A stretch of 64,000 nucleotides of DNA from a bacterium (GTDB taxonomy: Bacteria > Patescibacteriota > Minisyncoccia > Minisyncoccales > JAGGXC01): assembly GCA_021163265.1 (NCBI GenBank), contig JAGGXC010000023.1, positions 6,378 to 70,377 of the forward strand. The letters are read 5' to 3'. Numbering within the stretch: position 1 is the first letter of the stretch; the number at the start of each line of letters is the position of its first letter. The notes beneath the pieces are model-generated. The model saw only the letters and a program-made list of their open reading frames with translations. It had not been told where the DNA came from and did no database searches. Of the stretch, positions 30,502 through 54,878 are shown piece after piece. The position numbers and the translations under genes are program-made.

Positions 30502-30504
30502 CTT

Positions 30505-36495: not shown

Positions 36496-36536
36496 TTTTC
36501 CTAGAATTACTTTTATTATTTAATAATAGGGCACCT

Positions 36537-36571
36537 GTCAAACCGTGTCAAGAGGGGTCAATAGGTGTCAA
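36537..36571 (-). promoter_or_regulatory. Four direct repeats of TTGACA (plus strand GTCAA) phased at exactly 10 bp, upstream of the HTH_17 gene.
   Basis: Plus-strand GTCAA occurs at 36537, 36547, 36557 and 36567. On the coding strand each reads as the -35 consensus TTGACA, and an AT-rich stretch follows. This looks like an iteron or operator-type array. Confidence 0.45.
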
Positions 36572-36589
36572 ATCGGAGGTTTTCCACAG

Positions 36590-36643: not shown

Positions 36644-39600
36644 TTATCTCGCTCCCAACAATTGATTAAGTTTGGCACGAGTGGTTCTTCCAACTAAACC
36701 AGTCCCTTTAACGAGTCCCCACGGAGCCAGAATCTCCTGAGCATATTTCTCTTGAAAACGGATCACCGCTGATTTGGTTAAGAGACCAAAGTAATTTGTC
36801 TCTTTACCAGGAGAACCAGGACCTGAATTAGCTAATTTGGTGTCAGGATCAGAATTCAAAATGATTTGCAAACATTTAACATCCTCTCCTGTCATACCTT
36901 TTCTCAGATTCCTGTCAAATTTCGAGATAGTACACCTTGATATTGTCCCTGCTCCCTCCACTTGGGCCAATAACTGCTTAAGCTTAGCAATAGCACTCAT
37001 AATTTCGAAAATTTTCTCTTTTATCTCCTCAACAGTCATTTCTGAAATTGGCTTCTCAAAAGTCACAGTAGGAATCTCGGTAATCTCTCCTGCTTGTTTT
37101 GGTATAACTTCTTCTCCTCTAGCAAGAGTCGTAAAAGTCTGATTAGTATAAAATCCAACATTGCCACTCTCGTCTCGCGATTTAATTTGATAATGATAGG
37201 TTGTTTCTGGCAAAAGCCCAGACAAAGTAAGAGAATGGAAAGTAGTTGTAGTAGAAGTTTTTATTTCTAATCCATAATCAGTACTTGTGCCGTATAAAAC
37301 CCATGAAATGGAAGGTTCGTTTGTTTTCCAAGTAATAACAGCGTAAGTATCACCTGGCTTTGCTTCAATGTCAGAAATAGAAGGAGCAACAGTATCTCCT
37401 AAATTCTCTACTGATATCCCTCCCCCTCCGCTGCTTTCTTCTTCCGAAGAAGATTCACTAGGAGTAGCAGAAACTGCGTCGGTAGCTGCTGATTCTTGAT
37501 CAGCATCATTTGCCGCAGAAACCTTGTAATAATAAGTAGTTCCATTAGTTAATCCTGTATCAGTATAGGAAGTATTAGTGGTAGTAGCTAAAAAAGGATA
37601 TTGTGATCCAGATTTACGATAAATATAGTAGAAAGTTGCTCCAGAGGAGCTATCCCAGCTTAATGTTACCTGACTATCACCTGCGGTAGCGTTTAATCCT
37701 GTAGGAGTCGGAGGAGCACCCTCAGAGGATTTACTTGGAGCAAAAGCAGAAAAGTGATCAGTGGAAGCTCTTAGAGTAATTGATTGCAGTGTTGACCAAG
37801 TAGCATCGCTTGGAGTCAGAGTAACAGCAGTAGGAATCTCCACCCAGTTATTGGCTGTGCTGTCATAATAGGAAATCTTTAATTTTCTTGCTTCGTCTAT
37901 GCTAGAAATACCTTCAGCAGAAAGTTCTGATTTTGTCAATTTCATCTCTATATCAACGGATTGATTTAGATTAGTAATCGATCTTCCCTGGTTGTCTCCG
38001 CTGGAATAATAAGCGCTAATTTCTTTAGCTTTTGAAGAGAATATCTTTGCTCCTTGAGCTTCAGGAACTTTCATTGTATTCTGAACCCTTATAGCTACTT
38101 CTGTAGCTTCTGAACCAAGAGCGCCATTAGGAATCTCTACTTTTGTATCTGTTGTCTGAATAACACCTCCTTGAGAAGCCCGAATAGACTGCTCTTTTCT
38201 TTGAGGATTAAAGTCCACAGCAGATAAATTAATAGTAACCCCAGTAGCAGGAGCAGTAATCCTCAAAGGCGTAGAAAGACGATAACCCTCAGCCACCGCT
38301 TCAATTTTCCAGTCTCCCGAAGAAACATTTAATGTAAAAGATCCATCTGCATCAGATACTGTCTGTGCCCATCCTCCTTGACCATTGCTAGCCCAAACCA
38401 TCGCATTAGCTACCGGAGTTGAATTGTACTGAACGGTTCCTGAAATAGTAACACCTGCATTCCGACTTAAAGAAAGAGTTAAACCGGAAATATCAGAGTT
38501 AACAGTAGTGCTGGTTACTGATCCAGAATAACCAGCTTTTCCTACTCCGATGTCATACTCTCCCACTCTTAATCTCAAAGTAAAGGTACCATCTGGATTG
38601 ACCCTTGTTCCTCCTCCTCCATTTGGACCACCTGCCCACACAAAAGCATCGCTTGATGTGCCACTATCAACTGTAACTGTACCCGAAACAGTATAATAAC
38701 TCACACTGCTTAAGTCGATATTGATGGTAGTAGAGGCAGAAACCGTAACAGTAGTAGCCGGAATGGGACCAAAAGCAGGAATCCCTCCCTCAATAGTATA
38801 TTGAGTAGAACCACTGAAAGGAACTTCAATTTTGTAGACATCGTAACTGCTAGAAGTAGAAACTCTCACATCAGTAAAACTATGTCCAAGATTAGAATGA
38901 GCACCAATAAAAACATCTTCAAAGGTATTCCCTGGAGCAAGATGAATTTCCAGAATAGCGGTAGAGCGAGAAATATTTTGACCAGTCAAATCAGAATTAA
39001 CAGCGTTTCCACTATTTAGAATCCCTTTATAAATTTCTCCTCTGCCGGGAACTGCTGCATGAAGGTACAAATTGGAAAGTCCTTTTCTAATTTTAATACT
39101 GTAATTACCAGAGGTATCTGTCTTCGACCATCCTACACCGCTTCCAAACTCCCCTCGGGTAATCCAAACATCAACATCGCTCTGTGCTGATCCATTTTTA
39201 GTCACTTGTCCTGATATAGTAACAAAGTTGCTACTTTCCAAAGTAAAGTTTACAATCGGATTTTGGGAAGCTGTCACAGCAATATTGCTTTGTTCTGTCA
39301 GTTCTCCATATTCTCTGGCAAAGCCGCCAACATGATAATTAGAACAAAGAGGAACATACATTTTATAATATCCCTGGGAATCAGTAAAAGCATGACCTCC
39401 GCCAGGACCGCCTTCACACCAACAATAGATATCAACGCTAGCAACCCCATTACCTGATCCGTCTTTTACATATCCTTCAATATAGGAAGTCGGTGGCTCC
39501 AGTTTAATTGTTGTATCCAGACCTATATCAGTAAGATCAAAATCACTGCTTGAATCAACAAGAATATCTTTTTGAACCGGGAAAGGCATCATTAGACCTG

Positions 39601-41851
39601 TGATTTCAATTTTATAAGAGCCTTCAGTTACATAAAGATCAAAATATCCTTGCGAGTTGGCTTGAGCGGCACTAGATTTTCCATTAGCTTTTGGCTCAAA
39701 GGCTATAATCCACAATTCTCGATATTTAATAGCAGATAAGGGATTACCATCAGCTCCGACTATTCTTCCCCTAATTCTTCTATCTGCTTCAGTAAAAGTA
39801 AAGTTGGCAGATGCTGTAGGGGAACCAGCGCTAACAGTAACTGTTTGCGAAGAAGGATCCAACAACTGGCTTGTCCCACTAACAAATGGAGGAATATGAG
39901 CTTCTATTCGATAAGTTCCTTCGTCTGGTAAAGCAAGGGTGTAGTTTGTTGTACAAGAAGTATTAGTCTTAAAGAAAGAAGGTTGAGGACCTCCCGGACC
40001 CATTTCTGCTTCTACTCCTTCAGGTAAAGCCATTACTGCCACTAATTTGTTCTGCCCTTGAGATGTACAGCTTGTCCCTAATGTAATAGTTCCAGACACT
40101 TTATAAGCGGTAGTTCCCTGGAGAATTAAAACCTGAGGACTGGAAGTAGAATTCCCTATCTGGATCTCTGAGCCAGGAGCAGACAGATAAGCTCCAGAAG
40201 CATCAAAAGCCCAACTAAATCCCATTGAAGAAACATTAGGAACTGTATAGAGATAAGAAGAAGGATCAAAGCTCGTTCCATGAGAATCACCATCATAATA
40301 AACATCTTCTGATGTCATAGAACCAATAAATATCCTCATGTTGGTTGAGGTAGCTATAGGATTGGTGGTGGTAGAATCAACGATTTTGAAATAAAGATTA
40401 CCTAAAACGTCAAAAAATGATGACTCCTCAATATCTGAAATTATACCATCGGATGTTCTTACCTGAACTGGCCCTGACTGAGCACCGGCAGGCACAATAG
40501 CAGTAATAAAAGCATCAGACCAAGCAGTAGTGGAGGCTTCTACTGGCGGTAGAGGTCCTGTAGATGGATTAAATCCTCCACAGAAAAGAAGGGTGCCTGT
40601 AGCATTACCAAAATCAGAACCAGAGATAGTCACGGTAGCCCCGGTGGTAGTGGCATTTGGAGAAATAGAGGAAATTTGAGGGACAGAACCCGAATCTACT
40701 GATAGGGTTGTGGTGGAATAACTAAATGGAAACTGTTCATAGTTGGTATCCTGAATACCTGAGGCCGAGAAACTAATCTGAGAACCAACGGTAAGATCCA
40801 ATCCTCTTATTACAACTTGATTGCCAAAGAAATCTATAAAAGGATATCCGGGCTGGCCGCAATTGGAAAGAGTGGATCCATTTATCACGTAATTAGAACA
40901 GGTCATTACCTGATCTCCTCTCAGGGTTTTGTTGGTATTAAAAATTATTCTATCGCTGAGAGCTTTAATAGATGTTACTGATGGAAGAGCAGGCAAGCTG
41001 TATTGAACAAGAGAGCTTGAAGAATTACCCAAAACATCTATTTCTCCTAACCAGACAGAAGAATAATAACTATTTCCAATATTAAAATTGATCTGGCCTG
41101 ATTGACCTACTGAAGTGGTAGCTAGTAGTGTAGTCCCCCCTGCATCAGCATAAGCATAAAGAAGACCTATTTCCCCTACACTGCTTGTAGACTGTAAATA
41201 ATAGTTTCCTCCTTGATAAAAAGCCTTTATCGAACTAGTATTTGGAACTTGCGAATGAGTATCAGCAGGAAATGACTGAGTAGTAGTTGCATTGATACTT
41301 GCAGGCGTACTCGAAGCAATTACTCCATCTGTATCAATACTTACCTCAAATGCTTGACGCACAGCGCTTCCATTTTCGGGCCATCCATTATCTGTCCAGG
41401 AAGTAGAAGAAGCAGTTTTAACTATAACAAAAAACAACCCTTGAGCAGGAGTAGTAGTAGCAGAAGCAATATCAATAGTAGTAGTAACTCCTATTCCTGA
41501 AACAGTGGTCGTAGTTAAAACCACATCTAAAGAACCATCTGAATCTGTATCTTTTCCTACTCCTACCCAATCAAAACTGCTAGTAGAAAGCTCAGTAGGA
41601 GTAGCATTGGTAGAAGAAACAATAGTAATAATCACACTATCTAAATTTTCTGGTGGAGTGGAGGTAGAAGAAAGCTCTATCATCATAACAGATACCTCTG
41701 ACTCTGCTTTTATCTTTCCATTAACCTGAGGGTTCGGTATCAAAACTGTAGAAGTACCAGAAACTGCTGCCTGACAATCAGTAACGAAGAGGAATAAAAA
41801 AAATCCTCCAAAAAGGAGAAAAAAGAAAATTAGTTTTTTGAAATTGAACAT
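36644..41851 (-). CDS. Giant secreted surface protein (1735 aa) with a signal peptide, Thr/Ser-rich Ig-like and carboxypeptidase-regulatory-like repeats, fibronectin type III domains, a coiled coil and a C-terminal peptidoglycan-binding-like domain.
   Basis: N-terminal signal peptide ending ..VTDCQA. FN3-like domains (PTGLNATAGDSQVTLSW..YYYKV). C-terminal module KLKQLLAQVEG..RCTISKFDRNLRKGMTGEDVKCLQIILNSDPD...AVIRFQEKYA, which resembles PG_binding_1. Confidence 0.7.
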   Translation of the reverse strand: MFNFKKLIFFFLLFGGFFLFLFVTDCQAAVSGTSTVLIPNPQVNGKIKAESEVSVMMIELSSTSTPPENLDSVIITIVSSTNATPTELSTSSFDWVGVGKDTDSDGSLDVVLTTTTVSGIGVTTTIDIASATTTPAQGLFFVIVKTASSTSWTDNGWPENGSAVRQAFEVSIDTDGVIASSTPASINATTTQSFPADTHSQVPNTSSIKAFYQGGNYYLQSTSSVGEIGLLYAYADAGGTTLLATTSVGQSGQINFNIGNSYYSSVWLGEIDVLGNSSSSLVQYSLPALPSVTSIKALSDRIIFNTNKTLRGDQVMTCSNYVINGSTLSNCGQPGYPFIDFFGNQVVIRGLDLTVGSQISFSASGIQDTNYEQFPFSYSTTTLSVDSGSVPQISSISPNATTTGATVTISGSDFGNATGTLLFCGGFNPSTGPLPPVEASTTAWSDAFITAIVPAGAQSGPVQVRTSDGIISDIEESSFFDVLGNLYFKIVDSTTTNPIATSTNMRIFIGSMTSEDVYYDGDSHGTSFDPSSYLYTVPNVSSMGFSWAFDASGAYLSAPGSEIQIGNSTSSPQVLILQGTTAYKVSGTITLGTSCTSQGQNKLVAVMALPEGVEAEMGPGGPQPSFFKTNTSCTTNYTLALPDEGTYRIEAHIPPFVSGTSQLLDPSSQTVTVSAGSPTASANFTFTEADRRIRGRIVGADGNPLSAIKYRELWIIAFEPKANGKSSAAQANSQGYFDLYVTEGSYKIEITGLMMPFPVQKDILVDSSSDFDLTDIGLDTTIKLEPPTSYIEGYVKDGSGNGVASVDIYCWCEGGPGGGHAFTDSQGYYKMYVPLCSNYHVGGFAREYGELTEQSNIAVTASQNPIVNFTLESSNFVTISGQVTKNGSAQSDVDVWITRGEFGSGVGWSKTDTSGNYSIKIRKGLSNLYLHAAVPGRGEIYKGILNSGNAVNSDLTGQNISRSTAILEIHLAPGNTFEDVFIGAHSNLGHSFTDVRVSTSSSYDVYKIEVPFSGSTQYTIEGGIPAFGPIPATTVTVSASTTINIDLSSVSYYTVSGTVTVDSGTSSDAFVWAGGPNGGGGTRVNPDGTFTLRLRVGEYDIGVGKAGYSGSVTSTTVNSDISGLTLSLSRNAGVTISGTVQYNSTPVANAMVWASNGQGGWAQTVSDADGSFTLNVSSGDWKIEAVAEGYRLSTPLRITAPATGVTINLSAVDFNPQRKEQSIRASQGGVIQTTDTKVEIPNGALGSEATEVAIRVQNTMKVPEAQGAKIFSSKAKEISAYYSSGDNQGRSITNLNQSVDIEMKLTKSELSAEGISSIDEARKLKISYYDSTANNWVEIPTAVTLTPSDATWSTLQSITLRASTDHFSAFAPSKSSEGAPPTPTGLNATAGDSQVTLSWDSSSGATFYYIYRKSGSQYPFLATTTNTSYTDTGLTNGTTYYYKVSAANDADQESAATDAVSATPSESSSEEESSGGGGISVENLGDTVAPSISDIEAKPGDTYAVITWKTNEPSISWVLYGTSTDYGLEIKTSTTTTFHSLTLSGLLPETTYHYQIKSRDESGNVGFYTNQTFTTLARGEEVIPKQAGEITEIPTVTFEKPISEMTVEEIKEKIFEIMSAIAKLKQLLAQVEGAGTISRCTISKFDRNLRKGMTGEDVKCLQIILNSDPDTKLANSGPGSPGKETNYFGLLTKSAVIRFQEKYAQEILAPWGLVKGTGLVGRTTRAKLNQLLGAR

Positions 41852-41976
41852 AAACCCAGAAGAATTAATTTTTGGACATTATAAAATTTTCGCACATCAA
41901 AAAACCTTGTCAAGATAGCATACTCACAATTACCCAACTTTACTTAACACCCAGAGATGAGTAAGGTCGGAGAGAA

Positions 41977-43743
41977 TTATCTAGTGACTAGTAAAGCGTT
42001 AATTTTCTTACGAGTCATTGGTCCAACAAACCCAGTTCCCTTCTCTAATCCTAATGGATCCAGAATTTCTTCTCTATATTTTTCTTGAAAACGAATCACT
42101 GCTGCTTTTGTAAGACTAAGAAAGTTTCCTGTAACAAGGCCTTCAGGATATATATCAGAACCTTGAGATTTTAAAAATTCTTGTAAGCATCTCACTTGAG
42201 GATTATGCATCATTCCGAAATAAAGATTTTGATAAAAACCATCACATCCAATCCTCGATTGATTATCTTCTTTATTCTCAATTACTGCCAGTTGAGCTTT
42301 TAACTGATTCAAAAGTTCGGTAAGCTCAGCAATTTTGGCTACCAACTCTTCTTTGGTCATTTCTCCAATTGGTTTTTCCAAATATTTAGAATTAACTTGA
42401 GACAAGCTCTCTTTTTTCTTCTCCTCATATATAGTAGAAGCCTCCCAGAAAAAAGGAATTTCAGGCTCAGAATCTGAGAAATCTGAGATTTTTGTCTCTG
42501 CTAAGGGAATAATAGTTACCGAAGTAATGCTCTCTCCTATTTCAGGAACAGTAATCTCTCCTCTTTGCTCTTTGTCAAGATCAAAGAATCCAAGAGACCA
42601 GTTACCAGAAATATCCCTTAAGAGATAGGGTACTCTAAATAAATTCTGAGGATTGCCGATGAATTTTATTTTTAAAACTCCTTTCCCTCCAATAAACTTA
42701 AACCAATTACCTGTCCAGTTCTTGGTTGTTTGATTAACTCCTAAACTACTCTTCCCTCGAAGAGGTAAAAAATTAATCAAAGGAGTAACTCTAATATTTA
42801 AAAGATTTTTGTTTTTAAAACAGTATTCTCTTCCTAAAGAACAATCATTAGCCAATACCGCAATTGCCCAATCAGTAAAGATATCTGAAAAACTTTTTTG
42901 AAACCCATTCTTTACGAGAGCTTCGTTGATACTTGCAATTCCTGTCTTATTTGAATGTAGAGAATCTACAAGTATTTCTATCCCATATTTCTCTACAAGA
43001 TAATGCACAAACATACTCAAAGCACCGTAATCAGCAGAAACGCCCTTCCATTCTGTAATTGAATCTGACGGATTTCTTAGAAAAGTATTTACTCTATCTT
43101 GAAAATAACTACCCACATATTGGTCGTCATATCCTAATAAAGTAGGGGCGTATTCAGCTCTTGCTTCGTTCAACCAGACATCTTCTTTTGCTTTGTACTT
43201 TCTTTCTTTCTGGTTAAAGGTAATTAGATGGACAAACTCGTGAGCCAAGAAGCTTTTAGCCAAAGGACTAGTAATGTATTCCGCGTTTAAATAAAGCATT
43301 TCTCTTTCATTAGAATTAGGAGCCTGAATCCTAGAATATTCATCAGTATCTCTAAAGTATCCGCGCGCCTCTTTCTTCATTGGATGAATCAACACGGTAA
43401 TATTGTAATCTTTATCAATACCGGGCCTCCATTCAGAACCAAAGGTAGATGTTAAAGTAGGATAAATCACATAATAAAATTCTTCTCCCAAAGAATTCAG
43501 AGATTCTTCTATTTTTTGTTTCTCCTGCGAATCAAGAGATCTCCACCAGCTGTTATCAATATAAAAATTTATCTTTTGTGTCTGGAGTTTTAAAGTGGCA
43601 AGCAACTCGTTTCTTCCTGATGCATCGTAAGAAGGATCAACAAAAAAATTCACTTGTTGACCCAAAGTATCAGCAGAAACAATAACAGGTAAAAAAACAA
43701 AAAACAATCCAATAAAAATTAACTTTATGTCATTCCTCATCAA
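41977..43743 (-). CDS. Secreted gluzincin-type metallopeptidase-like protein with a C-terminal coiled coil and peptidoglycan-binding-like module.
   Basis: Signal peptide MMRNDIKLIFIGLFFVFLPVIVSA. HEFVH (HEXXH) with NEARAEY about 20 aa downstream, arranged like the thermolysin third zinc ligand. The C-terminus, LNQLKAQLAV..VRCLQEFL..AVIRFQEKYREE, is shared with the neighbouring genes. Confidence 0.55.
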   Translation of the reverse strand: MMRNDIKLIFIGLFFVFLPVIVSADTLGQQVNFFVDPSYDASGRNELLATLKLQTQKINFYIDNSWWRSLDSQEKQKIEESLNSLGEEFYYVIYPTLTSTFGSEWRPGIDKDYNITVLIHPMKKEARGYFRDTDEYSRIQAPNSNEREMLYLNAEYITSPLAKSFLAHEFVHLITFNQKERKYKAKEDVWLNEARAEYAPTLLGYDDQYVGSYFQDRVNTFLRNPSDSITEWKGVSADYGALSMFVHYLVEKYGIEILVDSLHSNKTGIASINEALVKNGFQKSFSDIFTDWAIAVLANDCSLGREYCFKNKNLLNIRVTPLINFLPLRGKSSLGVNQTTKNWTGNWFKFIGGKGVLKIKFIGNPQNLFRVPYLLRDISGNWSLGFFDLDKEQRGEITVPEIGESITSVTIIPLAETKISDFSDSEPEIPFFWEASTIYEEKKKESLSQVNSKYLEKPIGEMTKEELVAKIAELTELLNQLKAQLAVIENKEDNQSRIGCDGFYQNLYFGMMHNPQVRCLQEFLKSQGSDIYPEGLVTGNFLSLTKAAVIRFQEKYREEILDPLGLEKGTGFVGPMTRKKINALLVTR

Positions 43744-43775
43744 AATTTATTTTAACAAAAAATAATATGCATGCA

Positions 43776-43818
43776 AGAAAGAAAAAGAAACACTGCCCGC
43801 ATCTGCGGGCAGTGTTTC
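43776..43818 (-). terminator. Strong symmetric rho-independent terminator after the 1134-aa gene.
   Basis: A 14-bp perfect stem, GAAACACTGCCCGC / GCGGGCAGTGTTTC, with a 4-nt loop, flanked by T-runs on both strands. A second GC-rich hairpin (CCCCCGCG..CGTGGGGG) sits at 43828-43857. Confidence 0.6.
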
Positions 43819-43874
43819 TTTTTCAATCCCCCGCGCCGCCACAAGGAAACGTGGGGGTCCGTTTCTATCAACTA

Positions 43875-46800
43875 CTAGAAGGTCAGCACTCCTCCAAGAA
43901 CTGGTGAAGCAAAGGTTCTGGTAGTTTCAATGGCTGCAGACACACCATCATCCCAGTTAAAGTCAGTACCGTCAGCAATGTAGAACTGAGCAACTGTTCC
44001 TGGGTTACCGCCTGAACCAGCAGAAGCATCCCGAGTATCACCAATTACATAGAATGTCTTGGTAGCGCCAGCAGGAATTGCTTTAGGGGAACTTAGAGTG
44101 AATGTCAATTTCTTACCATTAATCGTATCGGCAACAGTCATTGAAGAAGTGGCCAAAACAGTACTCAGATCGCTACTATCATACAAAGAGAATATTCTCG
44201 TCTGAGACGGTGTGGCATGACCTGTACCTGCGCTCCAGCTAATGGTAGTAGTTACTCCATTCAGGTAAGCAGTGTAATCACCAATATTGGTCACGTCAAA
44301 GTAGAAGACATGATCATACTGGCTTGGGAAGTCGCTTCCTGAAGGAGTACTAGCATTAGCCGCAACGGTTACACCAGTCTTGTAGATGTACATCGGATTA
44401 CCTGCGTAAATACCTGTGGTAGTTGCTGTACTTCCGCTGATAGCTCCTTTATAAGTAATTCCCGCAGTGAGACCACTTGCGCTACTGGTATTAATATTCA
44501 ATGCTACGCTTGAACCAGAACTAGCATAAATGATGTAATTGATCTTTGCTTTCACCATCAAGTTCTTGGTGGTACCTTTAGTGATTATCCATGGATCGCT
44601 TGTAAGATCAAAGATAGCTCTTCCGTGACTGTCAAGAGAAGTCAAAGTAGAACCAATCTGAGTAGAACCATCCCATAAACTAATATCATAGATAGAACTT
44701 GTTGGTGCACCACCTCCCAGACTTGCGGTATATACTATCCTTGTCACCTCTATATCTTCTCCTAAACCAGCTGTAAACTTGGTTTGGGTAAAGTCAATAA
44801 GATCACCCGTACCAGCAATTACATTAGCTGAAATTGGAGTATCATCTCCTTGAGCCACTATTAAACTACCACTATCTGCTATGTGTATAGTCTGACCATT
44901 AACATTCTGAGTGTAGTTCACAGAATTATTTGTAGTCTTACCAGTTCCATCAACTTCATCTATCACTATATAACCACCATTAGCAGTGGAAGTGGTAGTC
45001 TTAATATCAGCATAAATGTATATCGGCAACTGCTGAGAAGCCTCAAGACTAATGTAAGGAGAAGGATAGAAAGTGTAGGTAGAACCGCTTGTCAAGGAAG
45101 ATTGAGTAGAACCAATCTGAGTACCGGTCTCTTTCAAGCCGTTATAAACTTTCAAGTTGGTCAAGTTACCAAATCCAAGAGTTCCATCATCTGTTATCTT
45201 GATAGCAGTAATATCAGCACCTTCCGATGCTCCAGCAGTAATAATGAAGGCACCAACCAAGGCTTCTGTCTGACCAGGAACACCGGTTGGATTTGAAGCT
45301 GACCAGTTGCTTACAGCGCTGTTTTGAGCAACAGTTAAGCTTCCAGACTTAATTGTCAATTGATTACCAGCTGAGCTTACTGAGCTTACTGAAGCCAATG
45401 AATCTCTTCCGGTAGCACTCACAGAGTGAATCTTTACAGTAAGTGTCTCGTTACCAGTGTATGAATTACCATTTGCTTTCTTAACATCAGATTTAATCTC
45501 TATTGTGTGTTCCTGACCGTCAGCAGGTACAATGAAAGTACTGCCAAAAGTAAATGTAGTTGCACCAGCAGCTGCATCAGTAGCAGAAGAAGATGCATTC
45601 TTGGTAGATCCCTTCTGAGAACCATCAAAGTATACTTTCATCTGATATAAACCACTTGTACCAATTGATCCGTAAGTGTGAATTACCATCGAACTAATCT
45701 TTACATCTTCTCCGCTAGCTTTAACAGCAAACTTAGCAAGACTTACGTTGGTTCCATCGAGAGGAATATTTCCGCTTGGAGAATCAGAAGCTCTGGTCAA
45801 TGTCAGCTTACCAGTGTTGATGGTAGAAGCAGTGGCTTTCAAAACTGTCCATCCTGAAGCATTAGGTTTGATGTAGACACCATAACCTTGATCATATGCT
45901 TCAATATCGGTCTGCTCCTGAATTGAGAATTGGAAAGTTCTGTTGGTACCTCCAACAATATCAGCTCTCAGATGCATATTCTTGGTCACACCCTTGTCAA
46001 TCACCAATGGGTTGCTACCAAAATCAAATGTTACTGTCTTGTCACTTGCCATATCAGCAATAGTGTCAAGCAGTTGTGTACCGCCATCATATAACTTGAA
46101 GTTCTTCAAGTCACCGGCAGCAGTAGAACCCATATTGGTGAACTTGATCTTTCTGATCTCAATCTTCTGATCCATCGCAGTCAAATTAAAGTTGAATACC
46201 TCAAAATTATCCTGAGGATCAACGCTAGCAGATGGATCAGTGGAAGTAGCAACAGTTAACTTTCCAAGGTCAGAAGCAGTAGCAGTAGTCAGGGTATTTC
46301 CAGTGATTGGGAAACTGCCACTAACCTCTACACCATCTGTAATATAATCGGCAGAATCTATGCTGAAGTAGAATGTCTTTCCTGAACCAGTACCGTTAGC
46401 CAAATCAAACTTGAAAGTAATAGTCTTTGTTCCTCCGGCGGGAACAGTAAACAATCCACTGGAGTTCTCGAAGACCATTACTTTATCAGAGAAAGAATTG
46501 TATTCAGCTAACTTAGTATCGCCATCATAAAGATAACCTTGAGCAATATCGCTATCAGCAGAAATTCCGTTTCTCTTTATCTTCAGAGTGGTTATTGTTA
46601 CATCTGAATCAGTTCCATTAGAGAATGTAACTTTTAAAGCTGGAATTAATGCCTGAGCTCCATCATTTGAAGTGCTGTCAGCAACGATGGTACCTGCAGC
46701 AGGCGTATCAGCAGCTAAAGCTACTGAGAATTCTCCGGTTGTAACACCACCTGTTTCACCTCCAGTCTCGCCACCTGTTTCACCACCTGTTTCGCCGCCT

Positions 46801-47279
46801 CCTGCACCAGCACTCAGAAGCTCATTCAGCTTTGCTCGAGTTGTGGAACCAACAAACCCAGTTCCGCTTGTTAAACCCCAAGGAGAAAGAACTTCTGCTG
46901 CGTATTTCTCTTGGAATTTAATAACAGCTGCCTTGGTCAAAGGACCAAAGTAGGAAGTCTCATTACCAGGAGAACCTGGACCTGAGTCAGCTACTTTTGT
47001 GTCAGGATCAGAGTTAAGTACTATCTGTAAGCACTTAACATCATCTCCTGTCATTCCCATACTCAGGTTGCGGTCAAAGCTGGTAATGGTACACCCTGTA
47101 ATTGTAGCAGCTCCTCCTCCTTGTATTGCGGCTAACTGAGCTTGAAGTTGAGCCAACTGAGCAAGTAATGCATCAATCTGAGCCTGCAGCTCTTCAGCAG
47201 TAACAGCACTTGCACTCGGAGCTATTGCCCAAAATGAAATGCTTAATGCTAATGCGAATGCGAATAACTTTTTTAACAT
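43875..47279 (-). CDS. Large secreted surface protein (1134 aa): signal peptide, N-terminal coiled coil plus peptidoglycan-binding-like module, a GGET linker, then many beta-rich Ig-like repeats.
   Basis: Signal peptide ..APSASA. EELQAQIDALLAQLAQLQAQLAAIQ is followed by CTITSFDRNLSMGMTGDDVKCLQIVLNSDPD..AVIKFQEKYAAE, the same module as in the 1735-aa and 588-aa proteins. Confidence 0.7.
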   Translation of the reverse strand: MLKKLFAFALALSISFWAIAPSASAVTAEELQAQIDALLAQLAQLQAQLAAIQGGGAATITGCTITSFDRNLSMGMTGDDVKCLQIVLNSDPDTKVADSGPGSPGNETSYFGPLTKAAVIKFQEKYAAEVLSPWGLTSGTGFVGSTTRAKLNELLSAGAGGGETGGETGGETGGETGGVTTGEFSVALAADTPAAGTIVADSTSNDGAQALIPALKVTFSNGTDSDVTITTLKIKRNGISADSDIAQGYLYDGDTKLAEYNSFSDKVMVFENSSGLFTVPAGGTKTITFKFDLANGTGSGKTFYFSIDSADYITDGVEVSGSFPITGNTLTTATASDLGKLTVATSTDPSASVDPQDNFEVFNFNLTAMDQKIEIRKIKFTNMGSTAAGDLKNFKLYDGGTQLLDTIADMASDKTVTFDFGSNPLVIDKGVTKNMHLRADIVGGTNRTFQFSIQEQTDIEAYDQGYGVYIKPNASGWTVLKATASTINTGKLTLTRASDSPSGNIPLDGTNVSLAKFAVKASGEDVKISSMVIHTYGSIGTSGLYQMKVYFDGSQKGSTKNASSSATDAAAGATTFTFGSTFIVPADGQEHTIEIKSDVKKANGNSYTGNETLTVKIHSVSATGRDSLASVSSVSSAGNQLTIKSGSLTVAQNSAVSNWSASNPTGVPGQTEALVGAFIITAGASEGADITAIKITDDGTLGFGNLTNLKVYNGLKETGTQIGSTQSSLTSGSTYTFYPSPYISLEASQQLPIYIYADIKTTTSTANGGYIVIDEVDGTGKTTNNSVNYTQNVNGQTIHIADSGSLIVAQGDDTPISANVIAGTGDLIDFTQTKFTAGLGEDIEVTRIVYTASLGGGAPTSSIYDISLWDGSTQIGSTLTSLDSHGRAIFDLTSDPWIITKGTTKNLMVKAKINYIIYASSGSSVALNINTSSASGLTAGITYKGAISGSTATTTGIYAGNPMYIYKTGVTVAANASTPSGSDFPSQYDHVFYFDVTNIGDYTAYLNGVTTTISWSAGTGHATPSQTRIFSLYDSSDLSTVLATSSMTVADTINGKKLTFTLSSPKAIPAGATKTFYVIGDTRDASAGSGGNPGTVAQFYIADGTDFNWDDGVSAAIETTRTFASPVLGGVLTF
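46749..46796 (-). repeat. Four tandem 12-nt repeats encoding (GGET)x4.
   Basis: Plus-strand acctgtttcacc / tccagtctcgcc / acctgtttcacc / acctgtttcgcc. They encode a Gly-Gly-Glu-Thr linker that could vary in length. Confidence 0.5.
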
Positions 47280-47493
47280 AATTGTTTAATCTTTTTTTTT
47301 ATGACCTTTTATTTTAAACCGTGTCGACCTTTTTAGTTTATAAGTCTTCATGGCTAAAGCTTTAAAGCCACGAAGATCACGGTTTTTTTAATTTATTTCT
47401 TCTGCCGCGGCCGACCTTATTATTTAAACCGCGACTTTTTTTCAATAAAATAAATATACTAAAACTTCTCTTTAGTTTCAATATTTCTTCTTT

Positions 47494-48225
47494 TTATTTT
47501 TCCTGTGGATAACTCAAGATAAGAATTTTTTCCAGTGCTTTTGAATATTCCTCTTTATTGTAATCGTCTTTTATTTCTTTCAGTATCTTCTCTTGATCAA
47601 AAGAAAGAGATTGATTCTCTAAATCTTTAATTTCATTCTTCACTACTTCAGCTAAAGCGTTTTTCAATTCTTTAGGTTCCTCTACCACTATCCCCAAAGA
47701 TTCAGCTTTTTCTTTATTTTCTTCCAATTCTTTTGTTTTCTCAACTATCTTTTTTACATCTGGTTTTTCAATCTTTTTTAAGATCTTAGCAGCTTCTGAA
47801 ACATTAGCTTGATATTCTTCAATTAAAGGTGCAAGTTTTTCAATCTTTTTCTTTTCAGCTACTTCAACAAGATTTTCTAATTGCTGATTTGCATATTCCA
47901 GCTGAAGAGTAGGCTGGTCTCTTTCTGGGACAATAGCCAATCTCGCTCTTTCAGTAATCTTTTTGATAGGATAAAAAAGATCGCCTGGTAAACTTTGTTG
48001 AGCAGAAACAAATATACTTCCTAGCAAGAATACTGCTACCAAACTCACTGTTGCATATTTATATCTAAACAGTGCCTCAAAAATATCCCACTTCTTACTG
48101 CGAGAAAAATCCCTTACATTCACTTCTCGGAATATTCTTTTCTTAGTCAAAAAAACCCACTCTTCTCTGGGTTTTATATTCCTTAATTCTTTAATTTTCG
48201 CAATCAATTCTGTTTCGCCCCTCAT
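47494..48225 (-). CDS. Putative anti-sigma factor: a single-pass membrane protein with a helical, possibly DUF5667-like, extracytoplasmic domain.
   Basis: It sits immediately downstream of the ECF sigma gene. There is a cytoplasmic N-terminus, one transmembrane helix (YATVSLVAVFLLGSIFVSA) and an LFYPIKKITERARL motif. The DUF5667 assignment is from memory. Confidence 0.5.
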   Translation of the reverse strand: MRGETELIAKIKELRNIKPREEWVFLTKKRIFREVNVRDFSRSKKWDIFEALFRYKYATVSLVAVFLLGSIFVSAQQSLPGDLFYPIKKITERARLAIVPERDQPTLQLEYANQQLENLVEVAEKKKIEKLAPLIEEYQANVSEAAKILKKIEKPDVKKIVEKTKELEENKEKAESLGIVVEEPKELKNALAEVVKNEIKDLENQSLSFDQEKILKEIKDDYNKEEYSKALEKILILSYPQEK

Positions 48226-48267
48226 TACTATTATGACGCAAAAATTATCTTTTTGTTACACCTAAAT

Positions 48268-48777
48268 CTAAACCAAAGTAGTCTTTTGAAGCTGTTTTTT
48301 TAGAGCTTTCAAAGCGCGATGCAGCATTACCCGCGTGTTTCCTTCTGATCTCCCTATAATTTGAGCTATATCTTGAATAGGAAGATCCTCTATGTAATGA
48401 AGAATAATCATGTTCTGATAGTCTTCTTTTAACTCAGCAAGTGCTTGGCGAATCAAAAGAATATCAGAATCATTCTTAGCTTTTTCTTCAGGATCTGGAC
48501 GAGGATCTGGAAGAGGCCCAGAGTTCTCTGCAGAAACTATTTTTATTTTCTCTTTGTTTCTATAAAAATCTACTATTAAATTACGAGCAATCCGATAGAG
48601 AAATGCCTGAAAATTATCGATTTCTTTGCCATTCTCAAAATATCTCCACCCCCTAAGAAAAGTCTCTGAAGTTAAATCCTCTGCAATCTCCACAGAGTTT
48701 ACTTTAAGAAAAATAAATCTGTAAATTTTGTTTATATATTTGTCGTATATTTTACTAAATTCTGACTGCTTTCCCAT
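48268..48777 (-). CDS. ECF-type sigma-70-family RNA polymerase sigma factor.
   Basis: Region 2 (FLRGWRYFENG..FQAFLYRIARNLIVDFYR) and region 4 (DLPIQDIAQIIGRSEGNTRVMLHRALKALK). The protein is 169 aa. Confidence 0.85.
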   Translation of the reverse strand: MGKQSEFSKIYDKYINKIYRFIFLKVNSVEIAEDLTSETFLRGWRYFENGKEIDNFQAFLYRIARNLIVDFYRNKEKIKIVSAENSGPLPDPRPDPEEKAKNDSDILLIRQALAELKEDYQNMIILHYIEDLPIQDIAQIIGRSEGNTRVMLHRALKALKKQLQKTTLV

Positions 48778-48826
48778 ATTCTAAAGCATAGGAAATAGGA
48801 CATTATGTCCTATCATAAGCATTGTC

Positions 48827-49690
48827 CTATTTTACATTAATGTCCGAACTATTTGTCCTATCAACTAATTGGTAAAAAGTATTATTTCTTTCTCCTATTC
48901 TCCGAACCAATCCTTTTTCCATTAAATAGCGAAAATCTCTTCTTAAGGTTCGCTTACTTACCGAAGGAAAGATTTTTTTAAAATCCTTTACTTGGGCATT
49001 ACCTTTTTCTCGTAATATCTCTAAAATCTTTTTCTGTCTTTCATGTAAATCTTCACTAAAAGATTTCGAATCATTATCTGAATCACTGGAGGCATCTTTA
49101 ATGAAATTCCTTTCTTTTTCCGAAAAACCAAATTTTTCTTCTGAATTACTTAAAGAATTTTTTGGTTCTAATTGAGAAAGCTCTATACCTTCTTCCCTAT
49201 CATCCACACCCTCATCTTCATCTAGATCTCTGTTGCTTTGCTCTTCCTGATCTCTGTTGTTATTTTTTTCTTCAAGTAATGTTTTTTGTTGAGGAAGACT
49301 TTCTTTTTTTGTATCTCTCCACTCAAATTTTTCAACTTCACTAATTTTTATCGCCTGAATTTCTGAAATCTTTTTTAACTCATTACTTATTTTACTATAT
49401 TCTTTTTCGATCTCCAAGAGGTCTTTAGAATCAATCCAGTCCAGCGTTTTCACCACCCCAAAAAAACTAAGCAAGGCTTCTATGTCTTTTCTCGTATTAT
49501 CTATTATTTCTCTTGATTGATAAAATGCCCCTTCCAAAATAAAAATCAGGTTGGCTAGAATATCAGCCCCTAATTTTCTCATTTTCAACCTCAAAGGATC
49601 ATCCTGAGGAAAGAATAAAGTCAACCGATAAAGCTTTGAGGTAAGTTTTACAAAATAATTCTTATCCATCGAATTTGTAGAGTATAGCAA
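48827..49690 (-). CDS. Fusion protein: an N-terminal four-helix-bundle domain (23S rRNA-IVS-protein-like), an acidic low-complexity linker and a C-terminal DeoR-like winged HTH.
   Basis: YRLTLFFPQDDPLRLKMRKLGADILANLIFILEGA resembles the four-helix-bundle family. The C-terminus, ERQKKILEILREKGNAQVKDFKKIFPSVSKRTLRRDFRYLMEKGLVRR, resembles HTH_DeoR. Confidence 0.45.
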   Translation of the reverse strand: MLYSTNSMDKNYFVKLTSKLYRLTLFFPQDDPLRLKMRKLGADILANLIFILEGAFYQSREIIDNTRKDIEALLSFFGVVKTLDWIDSKDLLEIEKEYSKISNELKKISEIQAIKISEVEKFEWRDTKKESLPQQKTLLEEKNNNRDQEEQSNRDLDEDEGVDDREEGIELSQLEPKNSLSNSEEKFGFSEKERNFIKDASSDSDNDSKSFSEDLHERQKKILEILREKGNAQVKDFKKIFPSVSKRTLRRDFRYLMEKGLVRRIGERNNTFYQLVDRTNSSDINVK

Positions 49691-49737: not shown

Positions 49738-52700
49738 TCAAGGAGTGGGATAAATATCATAGGTATTATTTTCAAAACTCAGATTATCTAAGACAGGGTT
49801 TGAACTTCCCTCAAGTCGAATACCGCAGGATGTCTTATAAGGGGGACCATATCCATAATTTTGATTATGATTCCTAAAAACAGAATCTTCAATTACAGAA
49901 TCAGAATTTGTCAGCCAGACTCCTGCTACTAAATTGCTATCAAATACAGAATTTCTAATCGTGGCTGTTGCATTATCAATCCAGATTGCTCCTTTATAAA
50001 ACACAGGAGTTAAAGGAAGATAGTAATACCACCCTCCACATCTAATTTCTACATTGTCAAAAATCGAACCAGAACTTCTAAGATAGATATAACGCCAACT
50101 TCCAGCTTTGCAATCACCGGTAGGACCAAAAATAATTGGTTTTTCAGATGTTCCTAAAGCAATGAGAGTACCTTGCACTTCTATACTAGGACGACGAACC
50201 ACATCAGATACAAGCTCTATATGTACGCCCGGCTCAATTAAGAGAATAGCGTCCTGAGAAATATAGAATGTTCCCCTAAACGTATAAGGACTCCCTTCTT
50301 TGGTAAGAATAGTGTCATGAGTAAGGGGATCGTTGGTATAATGAAAGAAATCACCAGAGGAATAATTATGCCGACTATTCTCTCTTTTTGGAGTCCCTTG
50401 TATGATGTTGCCGTCAGAATCATGACCGAATATATTAAACCCATCATTCGTCATCCAATTAGAAGGATCGTCTCCTGATAATTGAGGATTTATTCTCTCC
50501 ATAGACATCCGAATCCATCTTTCCTTTATTTTTCTATTTCTTCCGCTGAACCACCCAGAAGAACAATCAACTGAATCTATTAAATTACCAAAAGAATCAC
50601 GCAACTCCAATTTCTCTCCATTGTTTGAGAAAGCCCCTGTGTATATCTGATCTGTCTCTATGTCGCTAATTGTTTGGTTATCACTCCTCTCAAGAAGAAA
50701 GTATCCATTTGCTGGAATAATTCCCGAAAGCGTGGTAGAAGGTGAACCATCTTGAGAATAAAGCTGCCAGCCATCGAGATTAACTTCCTCATCGGTATTA
50801 TTCAAAAGTTCAATCCATTCATCATTAGCATCACTTTTTGTCCCCATCCAAGCAATTTCGTTAATTACAACAGACAAAGTAGGAGCGGGTTTTGAATTAA
50901 TAGTTAGATTTATTGGAATCGAGGAAGTTACAAATCCGTCGGAGACAAAGACAGTAGCTTGATACAAGCCAGGAGAAAGCCCAGATAAATGAGGAGTAAT
51001 TTCTAATGTAGAGGAAGCAACCGCAGGTATTGTTCCGCTAGCCGAACTCAAAACAATCCAATCAGTAGAAGTGGAGCTTGTGGAATATTCAACAAAAGCT
51101 TCCCATATTGTAGAAGTAGAAGATAAGTTTCCTAAAACAAGGCTCTGTGGGAGAGGATTCTGGCCTTCCTCTATGTCGAATTCTATGATAGAAGGCGTTA
51201 TCTTCAAGAAAGAAGAGAAAATTTCTATTGTAGTAGTAGCAGGAGAGCTTGTAGAATAATTGTTGTCTATTACCTCAAGTTTTGCTGTAAAAATACCCGA
51301 AGTAGCATAAGAATAAGCAACTGTAGAAGTTTGAGTAGTGGTAGAATGTCCATCTCCGAAATCCCAGATGAAAGAAGCTATTTCGCCATCTATATCAGTA
51401 GAAGAAGCAGCATTAAAAAATATCTCCTCGCCTATCAGCGCTCTTGATAAAGAAACCTCAAATACAGCAATAGGAGGATTATTTTCAGAAAAGAGATTTT
51501 GTTTTTTAGGTGTAGATTCTTGAAGCTCAAAATCTTTACTGTTGTCATTAGTATCTTGGTATTTATCTGAGACCTCATTCCATTTTCGAGCCAAGGTTTG
51601 TCTCTGTCCTGGATTTTGCGAAAAAGGACTACCTTCTACAAAAGGATCTGTGCTGCTTCCCCATGCTACAGTATCAAGAATATTTTTGTTTCTATCAAAC
51701 AAGGCAATACTATTATTTTTTGCCAATGTTTGAGAAGAAGTTGCGTCGGCATCAATTCCACTTGAGGAAGCGTAGTCAGAATTTACCCAGAGAAAATACC
51801 CCTCAGCAGGAATAACACTTCCCTGTGGAAAAACCCTGATTGAGTATTCTTTACCTAAGGATGTCTTTTTCTTTAATTGAAAACCAGAAATATCCACAGA
51901 ACTGGTAGAAGGATTATAAAATTCCACAAAATCATCAGAAGACCTATCTCCTTCAATTTGAACCTCGGTGATAATAATTTTTGATGAACTTACTGAAATC
52001 GAAGGTTCGGCATCCTCTTGCAAAGAGCTCCCGCTGCCTTTTCCTATATAGGAAAAAGGACTGATACTGTTTTCACGCTTTGGTGTCCCAAATACCTCAT
52101 TAAAGGCAGGTCCGTAGTAAGTATGCCATCCATAACCGCTTTTATTCCTCTCCATTGAACGTTTTTCCTTTTTATTTCCCGCAGGCCAATTTGAGCGGAC
52201 CACGATTCTATCTTCTAAAGAGCAATCTTCGTCAAATAAATACAATTCTTCGTTAGTATCGTTGATTGCTCCTGTATAGATAAAATCGGCTTTGACATTA
52301 GGAACTGAATTATCGTCTGTTCTTTCCAGAAGATAAAATGATTTTGGTAACAAGACGGTACCAGAAGCAAAAACTATTTTAATTTGGTGCTCTTTATCAA
52401 AAATCTGCCATCCCGAAATATCCACAGAGAAATTAGAGATATTTTTTAATTCTATCCACTCGTCACTTGCAGAATTTGAGGTACCCATCCATGCAATTTC
52501 ATTAAATACAATCCTGTTCTGACGAGGACTGACATAGTAAGAAGGCTTTGGACATAAAAGATCTCGTCCTATCTCCTCTTGTCCTATTCCTTCTATTTTT
52601 TTCCACTCTTCTTCTGACTCTTTTTGTTTTATTTCTGGCTTTTCTACCAATTTTGTCTCTTGCTTTTCTTGATTCTCGGTCTCTTCTGAAGAAATATTTA

Positions 52701-54599: not shown

Positions 54600-54702
54600 A
54601 AATCAAAAAAACGAGCTTTAAAAATAAAAAAACCTATTTTAATATAATAGTCCTTTATCTTGATCTTAACAACTGTGGAAAACTATCAATTTTATATAAA
54701 TT

Positions 54703-54734: not shown

Positions 54735-54878
54735 AGCAATATCATAAAGAACAAAAAGGGGAAGGAGGGGATGGAAGGTCGGGAAATATAAAATATAAAA
54801 AAGAAAAATAAAACCTGGAGTATCCTTTTTTCCCGACCTATTTCTAGTATAAATGCTTTCTAATAAATCTGTCAATAC

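Follow-up and report, generated by a model that had tools for sequence, protein, structure and literature searches.

Three genes for large secreted proteins follow an extracytoplasmic function (ECF)-type sigma factor gene and the gene of a single-pass membrane protein in a 64,000-nucleotide stretch of a Patescibacteriota genome (contig JAGGXC010000023.1, positions 6,378 to 70,377; hereafter the window), and the question that this locus raises is whether the sigma factor and its partner control all three. A first-pass annotation had read the five genes as a single run headed by a sigma/anti-sigma pair, with an anchoring module common to the three large proteins. The window has a G+C content of ~34% and carries nearly all of its long open reading frames (ORFs) on the minus strand. 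All five ORFs were verified, each of them on that strand: the sigma factor (169 aa, 48268..48777), a DUF5667 protein (243 aa, 47494..48225) and secreted proteins of 1134 aa (43875..47279), 588 aa (41977..43743) and 1735 aa (36644..41851). Coordinates are those of the window, and the promoters, leader elements, modules and terminators described below are likewise on the minus strand. Our analysis suggests that the locus is a lineage-conserved cell-envelope cluster built around a wall-anchored surface protein of ~1150 aa, with regulation in three layers as proposed below. We regard this reading as probable, with appreciable room for error. It ties the sigma factor to the first large gene only.

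The unit to which the sigma factor belongs was delimited by comparison with related species. We scanned one genome per species, found relatives in 263 stretches, kept 80 loci, and counted neighbouring genes by hidden Markov model (HMM) scans of the ORFs in the kept loci. Full-length orthologs of the 1134-aa protein occupy the same position in 80 species with 29–81% identity over ~1100 aa, and the named homologs come exclusively from Parcubacteria, Paceibacterota, Nealsonbacteria or the ‘Patescibacteria group’. Among the 66 loci with at least 3 kb of upstream sequence, 47 carry genes for a winged helix-turn-helix (wHTH) regulator, the sigma factor and the DUF5667 protein upstream of the large gene, 11 have only a weak HTH-like neighbour, and 6 have none of the three. 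The sigma and DUF5667 genes are both present in 55/74 loci, with DUF5667 directly downstream of sigma, and DUF5667 homologs down to 44% identity stand in the same context of HTH_DeoR, sigma, DUF5667 and a protein of ~1100–1180 aa that is a full-length ortholog. This synteny, set against 16/78 loci in which an ortholog of the 588-aa HExxH protein directly follows the large gene and 3/78 that carry an ortholog of the 1735-aa protein, indicates that the HTH, sigma, DUF5667 and large-protein genes form a conserved unit. As judged from gene order, that unit is made up of the wHTH gene, TAGGACA palindromes, the sigma gene, an ECF-type promoter, the DUF5667 gene, an RNA leader, the gene of the ~1150-aa protein and a terminator, and the 588- and 1735-aa proteins are accessory, lineage-variable passengers that reuse the anchor. 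The annotated tie between the sigma/DUF5667 pair and the large genes thus holds for the first of them and fails for the other two. One lineage has a gene of the bAvd / 23S-rRNA-IVP four-helix-bundle family between sigma and DUF5667 (L006:9494-9904 and L007:4121-4531, where L numbers denote loci of the sample). Diversity-generating retroelements draw their accessory protein from this family; the flanks of the gene fetched for the two loci showed no reverse transcriptase.

The sigma factor consists of sigma-2 and sigma-4 domains only (Sigma70_r2 and r4_2) and scores 102.8 bits against the NCBIfam ECF superfamily model TIGR02937, for which the cut-off is 42.9. It reached no named ECF subfamily, the best being TIGR02952 (BldN family) at 125.5 bits against a cut-off of 206. 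The next gene, 42 nt further on, encodes a protein that matches DUF5667 (PF18915) at 37.5 bits and that by hydropathy has one hydrophobic 19-mer at residues 57–75. Conserved parts of this family are an N-terminus of 35 residues containing ELIxKIxELRxIKPxxxWV, which we read as cytoplasmic, the transmembrane helix, the DUF5667 region from AQxxLPGD onwards, and a C-terminal LSYPQ. With its gene directly downstream of sigma, the conserved linkage of the two and a single-pass topology, the protein has the attributes of an anti-sigma factor and is a candidate for that role or for that of an envelope sensor; DUF5667 is not mentioned in the literature that we searched. Of the annotated sigma/anti-sigma pair, the ECF sigma factor and the single membrane segment are confirmed, and the anti-sigma label is a hypothesis drawn from position and topology.

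That hypothesis is strengthened by the promoter found in front of the DUF5667 gene. Inside the 42-nt gap, ~10 nt 5' of the DUF5667 start codon, lies GTGTAAC-N16-CGTCATAAT (48235–48260), that is, a TGTAAC box and a CGTC(ATAAT) box with a spacer of 16 nt. The pattern TGTAAY-N16/17-CGTC has this single match on both strands of the 64 kb, where 0.08 are expected and 8 of 100 shuffled sequences gave a match, and in 60/89 loci it occurs, once per locus, just upstream of DUF5667. A position weight matrix (PWM) built from 58 sites of other species with the window left out (spacer 16 in 50 sites, 17 in 8) shows conservation also at positions that the pattern does not force, namely a T before GTAA in 56/58 and a T two positions after CGTC in 56/58, as in ATA after CGTC. 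The window site scores 38.1 compared with a training median of 29.7. At a relaxed threshold the PWM found no other site in the window and none in 20 shuffles, and 52 of its 53 matches in 1.02 Mb lie upstream of DUF5667. Neither the pattern nor the PWM found an ECF-type motif upstream of the 1134-, 588- or 1735-aa genes or of the sigma and HTH genes; the check proposed in the annotation, a search for such motifs in front of the three large genes, thus came out negative. If the ECF-type promoter drives DUF5667, the 1134-aa gene would be reachable for the sigma factor only by read-through. A second ECF-type site (TGTAATAAAT...AACGTC) is present in two Nealsonbacteria (L052:11327-11352 and L083:11358-11383), past the large gene and ~130 nt upstream of a nucleotide-sugar operon that contains a UDP-glucose-dehydrogenase-like gene and epimerases, which hints that the sigma regulon may include glycan synthesis.

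The arrangement resembles that of SigX, SigM, SigW and SigV of Bacillus subtilis, where likewise a small sigma-2/sigma-4 sigma factor is followed by the gene of a single-pass membrane protein, envelope genes are targets, and the promoters have the same architecture and nearly the same sequence as TGTAAY-N16/17-CGTC. The consensus for SigX, SigM and SigW is TGxAAC-N16/17-CGTC or CGTA. Unlike in B. subtilis, the ECF-type promoter here stands between sigma and its partner rather than upstream of sigma, the sigma gene would lie behind a wHTH operator, the partner is a DUF5667 protein without ASD or zf-HC2 domain, and no ECF group cut-off is reached. SigI/RsgI of Clostridium thermocellum similarly places an alternative sigma factor and a membrane sensor beside very large secreted surface proteins that they control; those sigma and anti-sigma factors belong to other families, and their sensing domains are carbohydrate-binding modules.

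Regarding the control of the sigma gene itself, the first gene of the conserved unit (48827..49690) encodes a 287-aa regulator with a C-terminal DeoR-type winged HTH (Pfam HTH_DeoR, E 7.6e-9). Four TAGGACA/TGTCCTA boxes, including the palindrome TAGGACAtaaTGTCCTA, cluster at 48796..48860 over the end of the HTH gene with its stop codon, the 49-nt gap before sigma and the sigma start, so that four of the window's seven TAGGACA copies fall within 65 bp. Such boxes and palindromes fill the HTH–sigma intergenic region in nearly all related loci, and a few lineages have an altered half-site in their place, for example ATGTCGCA, GATGCGACA or TGTCCGCA. From this placement we infer that the TAGGACA palindromes are the operator of the adjacent wHTH protein. 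None of these boxes was found near the large gene or in the loci with only an HTH neighbour, and the weak HTH neighbours of the latter are probably unrelated wHTH proteins. The idea that the N-terminal half of the regulator is a 23S-IVP-like four-helix bundle was dropped, being without Pfam support.

Downstream of DUF5667 the genes appear to be divided into several transcription units. A sigma-70-like promoter for the 1134-aa gene, TTGAAA-N17-TATATT at 47453..47481, was found by consensus scan; it agrees with the consensus at 10 of 12 positions, which is a consensus match only, and L008 and L002 have it at the corresponding position. For the 1735-aa gene the same scan gave TTGACA-N16-GAAAAT at 41913..41886, and for the 588-aa gene inspection showed an upstream TTGCAT...TAAAAT pair. 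Directly 3' of the 1134-aa gene lies an intrinsic terminator (43781..43824) with a 20-bp stem, 10 G-C pairs and a T-run. The 1735-aa gene is followed by a hairpin and T-run at ~36623–36595, seen by inspection and not flagged by the terminator scan, and no terminator-like site was found after the 588-aa gene, so that the annotated terminator after each large gene stands for two of the three. The scan found no terminator-like site at 47280–47493, the gap that separates DUF5667 from the 1134-aa gene; in the sampled loci this gap has one in 11/62 cases, versus 42/70 for the region after the large gene. Because a terminator and sigma-70-like promoters lie between the genes, the five-gene run is best read as several units. 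In the best reading the sigma factor would drive DUF5667 and by read-through add to transcription of the large gene, and would leave the 588- and 1735-aa genes untouched. Envelope-signal-dependent ECF control, as annotated, is on this basis plausible for the 1134-aa gene and lost for the other two.

The sigma-70-like promoter of the 1134-aa gene is preceded by TTATCCACA at 47504-47512. This is an instance of the DnaA-box-like motif GTT(T/A)TCCACAG, which in these genomes immediately precedes the -35 box in many unrelated promoters of the sigma-70-like type (window 47504-47512 and 54674-54682, both minus strand; elsewhere for example L057:527, L048:5748 and L067:3354). At 47504 the conserved codons for the C-terminal SYPQ of DUF5667 supply the motif, and in species without that ending it is intergenic. 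TTWTCCACA was accordingly rejected as a locus-specific signal, since it stands before many promoters that are unrelated and shows no enrichment in the window at one mismatch.

Between this promoter and the start codon of the 1134-aa gene the transcript is predicted to fold. Hairpins and repeats of AAGGTCG are found in the 214 nt that precede the gene, and the leader fold consists of hairpin A (47435-47404) and element B (47385-47317) with z = -4.36. Hairpin A, GUCGCGG...AAGGUCGG-CCGCGGC, is a minimal copy of the motif and has the design of the L007 leader. Element B (47306..47400) is the full copy, in which helix P1 is AAACCGUG/CACGGUUU, hairpin P2 is UCUUCGUGGCU/AGCCAUGAAGA, and GGUCGA stands just 5' of the P1 3' strand. 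The common design across loci has a P1 3' strand preceded by near-invariant GGUCGR and a P2 hairpin CUCGUGGC/GUCGCGAG with the loop UAAUACGUAAR or, in the window type, UCUUCGUGGCU/AGCCAUGAAGA with the loop ..AAAGCUUU...; 3' of P2 come a variable insert of 0–80 nt and an A-rich tail that ends 35–60 nt before the ATG. A second leader class keeps P1 and GGUCGA and has a different P2, UUUUGRAU...AUYCAAAAGA, which covaries too. On the sense strand, 68 of the 135 GGTCGA copies in 1.02 Mb fall within 150 nt upstream of a large gene.

Several lines of evidence point to conserved pairing. P1 occurs as 35 distinct arm pairs, and arms of the same locus pair better than arms of different loci (GC-weighted Mann-Whitney p = 7e-7); this comparison replaced a naive stem-length statistic, which discriminates poorly in AT-rich sequence. 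In a MAFFT alignment of 21 leaders that was not fitted to the model, pairing in P2 reaches 96%, and 3/8 pairs show compensatory changes. A covariance model (R1) built from 11 leaders and run on both strands of 1.08 Mb gave 40 matches at E<=1 (36 at E<0.01), all on the sense strand directly upstream of a large gene and one per locus; the window leader at 47306-47400 scores 66.2 bits (E 4e-14). In the alignment of the 40 matches, which is fitted to the model and biased towards structure, 92.1% of cells are paired compared with 84.7% after shuffling and 22–53% after sliding, 10 of 14 pairs (6 of 8 in P2) have changes on both sides, amounting to 52 cells, and none of 500 shuffles reached the observed values. 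G-U wobbles occur on the sense strand only. No Rfam 15 family matched at its gathering score in the window or in ten canonical loci, where only chance matches appeared at E<=10, and nothing relevant on a Patescibacteria RNA motif was found in the literature searched. The R1 matches fall in 34/55 loci with sigma/DUF5667 and in 0/19 without, and GGUCGR in 51/55 and 10/19, respectively (Fisher p = 3e-4), associations that shared phylogeny may inflate. With covariation-supported helices at a conserved position upstream of orthologs, the element has the properties of a structured cis-regulatory leader in the generic sense, and it is most likely a protein- or ligand-binding element or an mRNA stabiliser.

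Other readings of parts of the leader were discarded. The hexamers do not make a sigma-70 or ECF promoter (AAGTCG-N15-17-CGTAAA), since ACGT becomes AGCT or AAAGCTTT in several loci, the spacing varies and both helices covary. A UUGAC-GUCGA pseudoknot was rejected on TTGAGA and TTGAAA variants that are uncompensated, and a 21-codon ORF in the window leader was rejected as a leader peptide, being not conserved in L008 or elsewhere by inspection.

We next turn to what the large gene encodes. The 1134-aa protein comprises a signal peptide, a coiled coil, a PG_binding_1 domain, a GGET linker and an Ig (immunoglobulin)-like body. Its anchoring module (~aa 24–160; 46800..47210) recurs at the C-termini of the 588-aa (~41980–42381) and 1735-aa (~36647–37060) proteins, with 64% and 47% identity, respectively, over ~135 residues (pairwise BLASTP E 7e-52 to 2e-22), and a module HMM found these three copies only in the whole window. 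The alignment thus bears out both the sharing of the module and its N-terminal position in the first protein as opposed to the C-terminal one in the others. The signal peptides that had been annotated are supported by hydropathy, each protein having one hydrophobic segment, at the N-terminus, with an AxA-like site after it. Against Pfam PG_binding_1 (PF01471) the 588-aa copy reaches 26.5 bits, above the gathering score of 23, whereas the 1134- and 1735-aa copies stay under it at 20.2 and 17.0 bits; many close homologs have a precomputed PF01471 match. An AlphaFold2 model of residues 24–165 of the 1134-aa protein (62 homologs, predicted local distance difference test (pLDDT) 88) has a long helix (5–30) and then a compact helical domain. 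In the PDB, Foldseek gave significant matches to PG_binding_1 domains exclusively, the top 15 at probability 0.99–1.0; they include CtpB, SleC, 5tv7, 1lbu, SleB-N (template modelling (TM) score 0.79, normalised to the target) and phiKZ gp144. The sequence profile matches 1lbu at E 1.7e-3, and the helix region resembles designed heptad coiled coils. By inspection a heptad coiled coil runs from aa 27 to 53 with the core L31, I35, L38, L42, L45, L49 and I52 in 4-3 spacing, and Cys 63 and Cys 83 are invariant among orthologs.

On the strength of the alignment, the model, and the Foldseek and profile matches, we take the shared module to be real and, as modelled, it is a coiled-coil helix followed by a PG_binding_1 fold, so that the cell-wall anchoring nature proposed for it agrees with structure prediction, binding itself being predicted. 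The coiled coil would multimerise a weak peptidoglycan binder and raise its avidity, and the module would tether and oligomerise the protein non-covalently at the peptidoglycan. The PG_binding_1 domains of CtpB, SleB/SleC, the Streptomyces Zn DD-peptidase (1lbu) and phage endolysins have the same three-helix fold. In contrast to those, the domain here is preceded by an obligatory heptad coiled coil and has an insert of ~20 residues (SDPDTKVADSGPGSPGNET) and a conserved Cys pair, and its cargo is structural or a protease where that of known PG_binding_1 proteins is a wall hydrolase. Braun's lipoprotein (Lpp) and other coiled-coil wall tethers, in which a short parallel coiled coil multimerises the peptidoglycan attachment point, are functional analogs only, as the module proteins have neither a lipid anchor nor a covalent peptidoglycan link and share no homology with Lpp. 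The 120 best database matches to the N-terminal module are fragments of up to 232 aa, mostly labelled ‘partial’, and a JGI metagenome contig (L001) stops inside the 1134-aa gene at aa 759. Assemblies seem to break within this gene, perhaps through a strain-variable body.

The body of the 1134-aa protein (residues 171–1134) extends over ~950 aa and is modelled by AlphaFold2 as all-beta (pLDDT 87.9), with six to seven Ig-like beta-sandwich domains of ~150 residues each. Neither Pfam nor NCBIfam gave a match to it, yet more than 433 homologs of 1100–1370 aa were found, each of them named ‘hypothetical’ or ‘peptidoglycan-binding’. Clustered at 50% identity, the body family has 1778 representatives at E<=1e-3, or 511 if E<=1e-30 is required. 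The protein has an isoelectric point of 4.6, no Cys outside the anchor, and 45% T+G+S+A. A wall anchor combined with an acidic, Cys-free Ig-like string that would point outward suggests a structural surface protein, possibly a surface-layer (S-layer) or major envelope protein. It is secreted, acidic, Cys-poor and ~1100 aa long like the Gram-positive S-layer proteins SbsC, SbpA and SlpA, which also have an N-terminal wall-anchoring domain followed by Ig-like domains as beads on a string, a strong promoter, a long structured 5' untranslated region, a strong terminator and a neighbouring Wzx/Wzy_C glycan cluster. Its anchor is non-classical, a coiled coil and PG_binding_1 rather than SLH or CWB2, and joined to domains that may self-assemble. 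Compared with known S-layer proteins it lacks sequence or specific fold similarity and is unusually well conserved. Pfam, NCBIfam and fold searches gave no homology to a known S-layer family, and the literature searched held nothing relevant on an S-layer protein of the candidate phyla radiation (CPR).

Taken together, these observations lead us to the following model. The ~1150-aa proteins would be held at the wall by the N-terminal coiled coil and PG_binding_1 domain, and their acidic Ig-like string would project outward. As a first layer of control, the wHTH protein would act at the TAGGACA palindromes that overlap the sigma start region. As a second, the ECF sigma factor would recognise the lone TGTAAC-N16-CGTC promoter; because the gene behind this promoter is DUF5667, sigma, once active, would switch on the gene of its membrane partner and thereby set up negative feedback, and because no terminator separates DUF5667 from the large gene, the sigma-driven transcript would read through into the latter. 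As a third, the read-through transcript and that from the sigma-70-like promoter would both carry the structured leader with helix P1, hairpin P2, invariant GGUCGA and A-rich tail. The transcription unit would stop at the strong terminator behind the 1134-aa gene.

A number of points weigh against this model. The loci of the sample are related by descent, so that the synteny counts do not represent independent events. Use of the TGTAAC/CGTC promoter by the sigma factor is deduced from adjacency and the classical ECF consensus, and with a sigma-70-like promoter of its own, the 1134-aa gene may be expressed largely independently of the sigma factor. Residues 1–77 of the DUF5667 protein gave no Pfam match at E<=10, whether to an anti-sigma domain (ASD, zf-HC2, RsgI_N) or to any other, and a profile search found nothing below E 0.2 in the PDB; for want of such a sequence link to known anti-sigma domains the anti-sigma label is a positional one. 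P1 is only 55% paired in the unfitted MAFFT alignment, which we attribute to register shifts of 1–2 nt, and the pair counts given above share the bias of the fitted alignment. Regarding the surface protein, Foldseek returned only generic Ig-string matches for the body at TM 0.1–0.17 (PrgB, alpha-2-macroglobulin, integrins and the Nitrosopumilus maritimus S-layer protein 8c8m), and with 35–60% identity across orders the family is more conserved than typical S-layer proteins are.

The model has to be compared with three other explanations, the first of which is that the ECF sigma/anti-sigma pair heads one envelope-stress operon or regulon and directly drives all three anchored proteins. The adjacency of five genes on one strand, the common module and the 588-aa ortholog found behind the large gene in 16/78 loci are what this explanation would account for. 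We consider it very unlikely in view of the 20-bp-stem terminator after the 1134-aa gene, the sigma-70-like promoters in each intergenic region, the single ECF-type site of the window with none upstream of the three large genes, and the presence of the 1735-aa ortholog in only 3/78 loci. By the same evidence the annotated single run of three genes under a sigma/anti-sigma pair is contradicted. At the other extreme the linkage may be positional only: the large gene would be constitutive from a housekeeping promoter, and the sigma/DUF5667 pair would regulate itself or distant genes and lie nearby by chance or descent. The sigma-70-like promoter with its general TTWTCCACA motif upstream of the leader, the 19/74 loci in which the large gene has no sigma/DUF5667, and the extra ECF-type site before the nucleotide-sugar operon in two Nealsonbacteria would all fit. 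Set against them are a gene order kept down to 29–44% protein identity and across named candidate phyla, the depletion of terminators between DUF5667 and the large gene relative to the region behind it, and the co-occurrence of the leader motif with sigma/DUF5667, the last perhaps inflated by shared phylogeny as noted. On balance we think that a merely positional linkage is unlikely, though less so than the single operon.

The third explanation concerns the leader, which could function at the DNA level, as a promoter or as an inverted repeat bound by a protein, instead of as a folded RNA. A TTGACA-like hexamer does stand directly 5' of P1, the P2 loop of many loci contains TAnTAC, and both GTCGAC and ACGT/AGCT are palindromic. 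But the TTGACA–TAnTAC spacing ranges over 14–19 nt and the invariant final T is missing from the second hexamer (by inspection), P1 encloses a variable insert of 13–170 nt across which locus-specific complementarity is kept (the p = 7e-7 above), the wobble pairs would be C-A mismatches on the other strand, and P2 has compensatory changes at 6/8 pairs. We accordingly hold a DNA element to be improbable by a wide margin, and prefer the model in which the leader acts as RNA within a three-layer scheme.

The two passengers differ in content. The 588-aa protein is a putative HExxH (gluzincin-like) metalloprotease with weak matches to Peptidase_MA_2, M78 and MXAN_6640_HExxH; its ORF begins TTG-ATG, and the ATG one codon in is the likelier start. 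The secreted 1735-aa multidomain protein contains three CarboxypepD_reg-like domains, fn3 and a PAP_N-like domain. Upstream of the HTH gene lie the genes of a 1419-aa secreted protein with three lamin-tail (LTD) domains, PKD and a beta-helix (49738-53997, minus strand) and of a 197-aa membrane protein (54006-54599, minus strand). Relatives of the 1419-aa protein occur in 35/78 loci, mostly upstream of the HTH gene, so the protein may also belong to the cluster. The intergenic region 5' of the 197-aa gene may encode a small RNA, for it holds an extended inverted repeat, AGGTCGGGAAA...TTTCCCGACCT (54790-54860, minus strand), that starts with AGGTCG, comes immediately after a promoter resembling TTGACA-N17-TATACT and is followed by a terminator. 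On the other side of the locus, four tandem TTGAC(A) repeats with a spacing of 10 or 11 nt (TTGACAcctaTTGACccctcTTGACAcggtTTGACA; 36530-36580, minus strand) precede an 81-aa HTH_17 gene, and an HTH_17 (excisionase-type) gene recurs near the large gene in L002 and L004. At 3898-4926 (minus strand) a 342-aa protein has the unusual architecture of an N-terminal Sigma70 region 4 and a C-terminal HARE-HTH.

A complete Wzx/Wzy-type glycan pathway is encoded further downstream at ~12.9–36.2 kb (12927–36197). It comprises an initiating transferase, a DegT aminotransferase, a PglF-like dehydratase, GT2 glycosyltransferases, a UDP-glucose dehydrogenase, methyltransferases, a Wzx flippase and a Wzy_C gene (12927-15011). 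In 27/61 loci the 6 kb downstream of the large gene include a gene of the Wzy_C family. This recurrence and the cluster in the window make it plausible that the Thr/Ser-rich surface protein is glycosylated or that a wall glycopolymer is made. Inside the glycan cluster is a sulfation set (28271-34438, minus strand) with a fused ATP sulfurylase/APS kinase (32798-34438), a CysQ-like phosphatase (30505-31284) and a sulfotransferase (28271-29155), pointing to a sulfated glycan at the cell surface.

An ECF circuit, a PG_binding_1 anchor and an S-layer-like protein are each of a known kind, whereas the leader RNA and the role of DUF5667 are apparently undescribed. To our knowledge CPR/Patescibacteria are almost entirely uncultured, their envelope proteins and gene regulation are essentially uncharacterised, and few or no ECF promoters have been defined in CPR lineages. 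The locus provides a candidate major surface protein family whose body has neither a Pfam domain nor an informative name, together with handles that can be tested: a plausible role for DUF5667, a defined CPR ECF promoter, a wHTH operator and a lineage-specific RNA outside Rfam. The coiled-coil and PG_binding_1 cassette would be a portable wall-anchoring device, which could be used to list the anchored surface proteins of CPR organisms. Going further, and only tentatively since we rate the whole as rather doubtful, the ~1150-aa family may be the S-layer or major envelope protein of Paceibacteria-type CPR, DUF5667 a new class of anti-sigma sensor, and the leader a lineage-specific riboswitch or protein-binding element. 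If this is true, a previously undescribed circuit would set the output of this protein family in these bacteria, with DUF5667 monitoring the assembly of the envelope.

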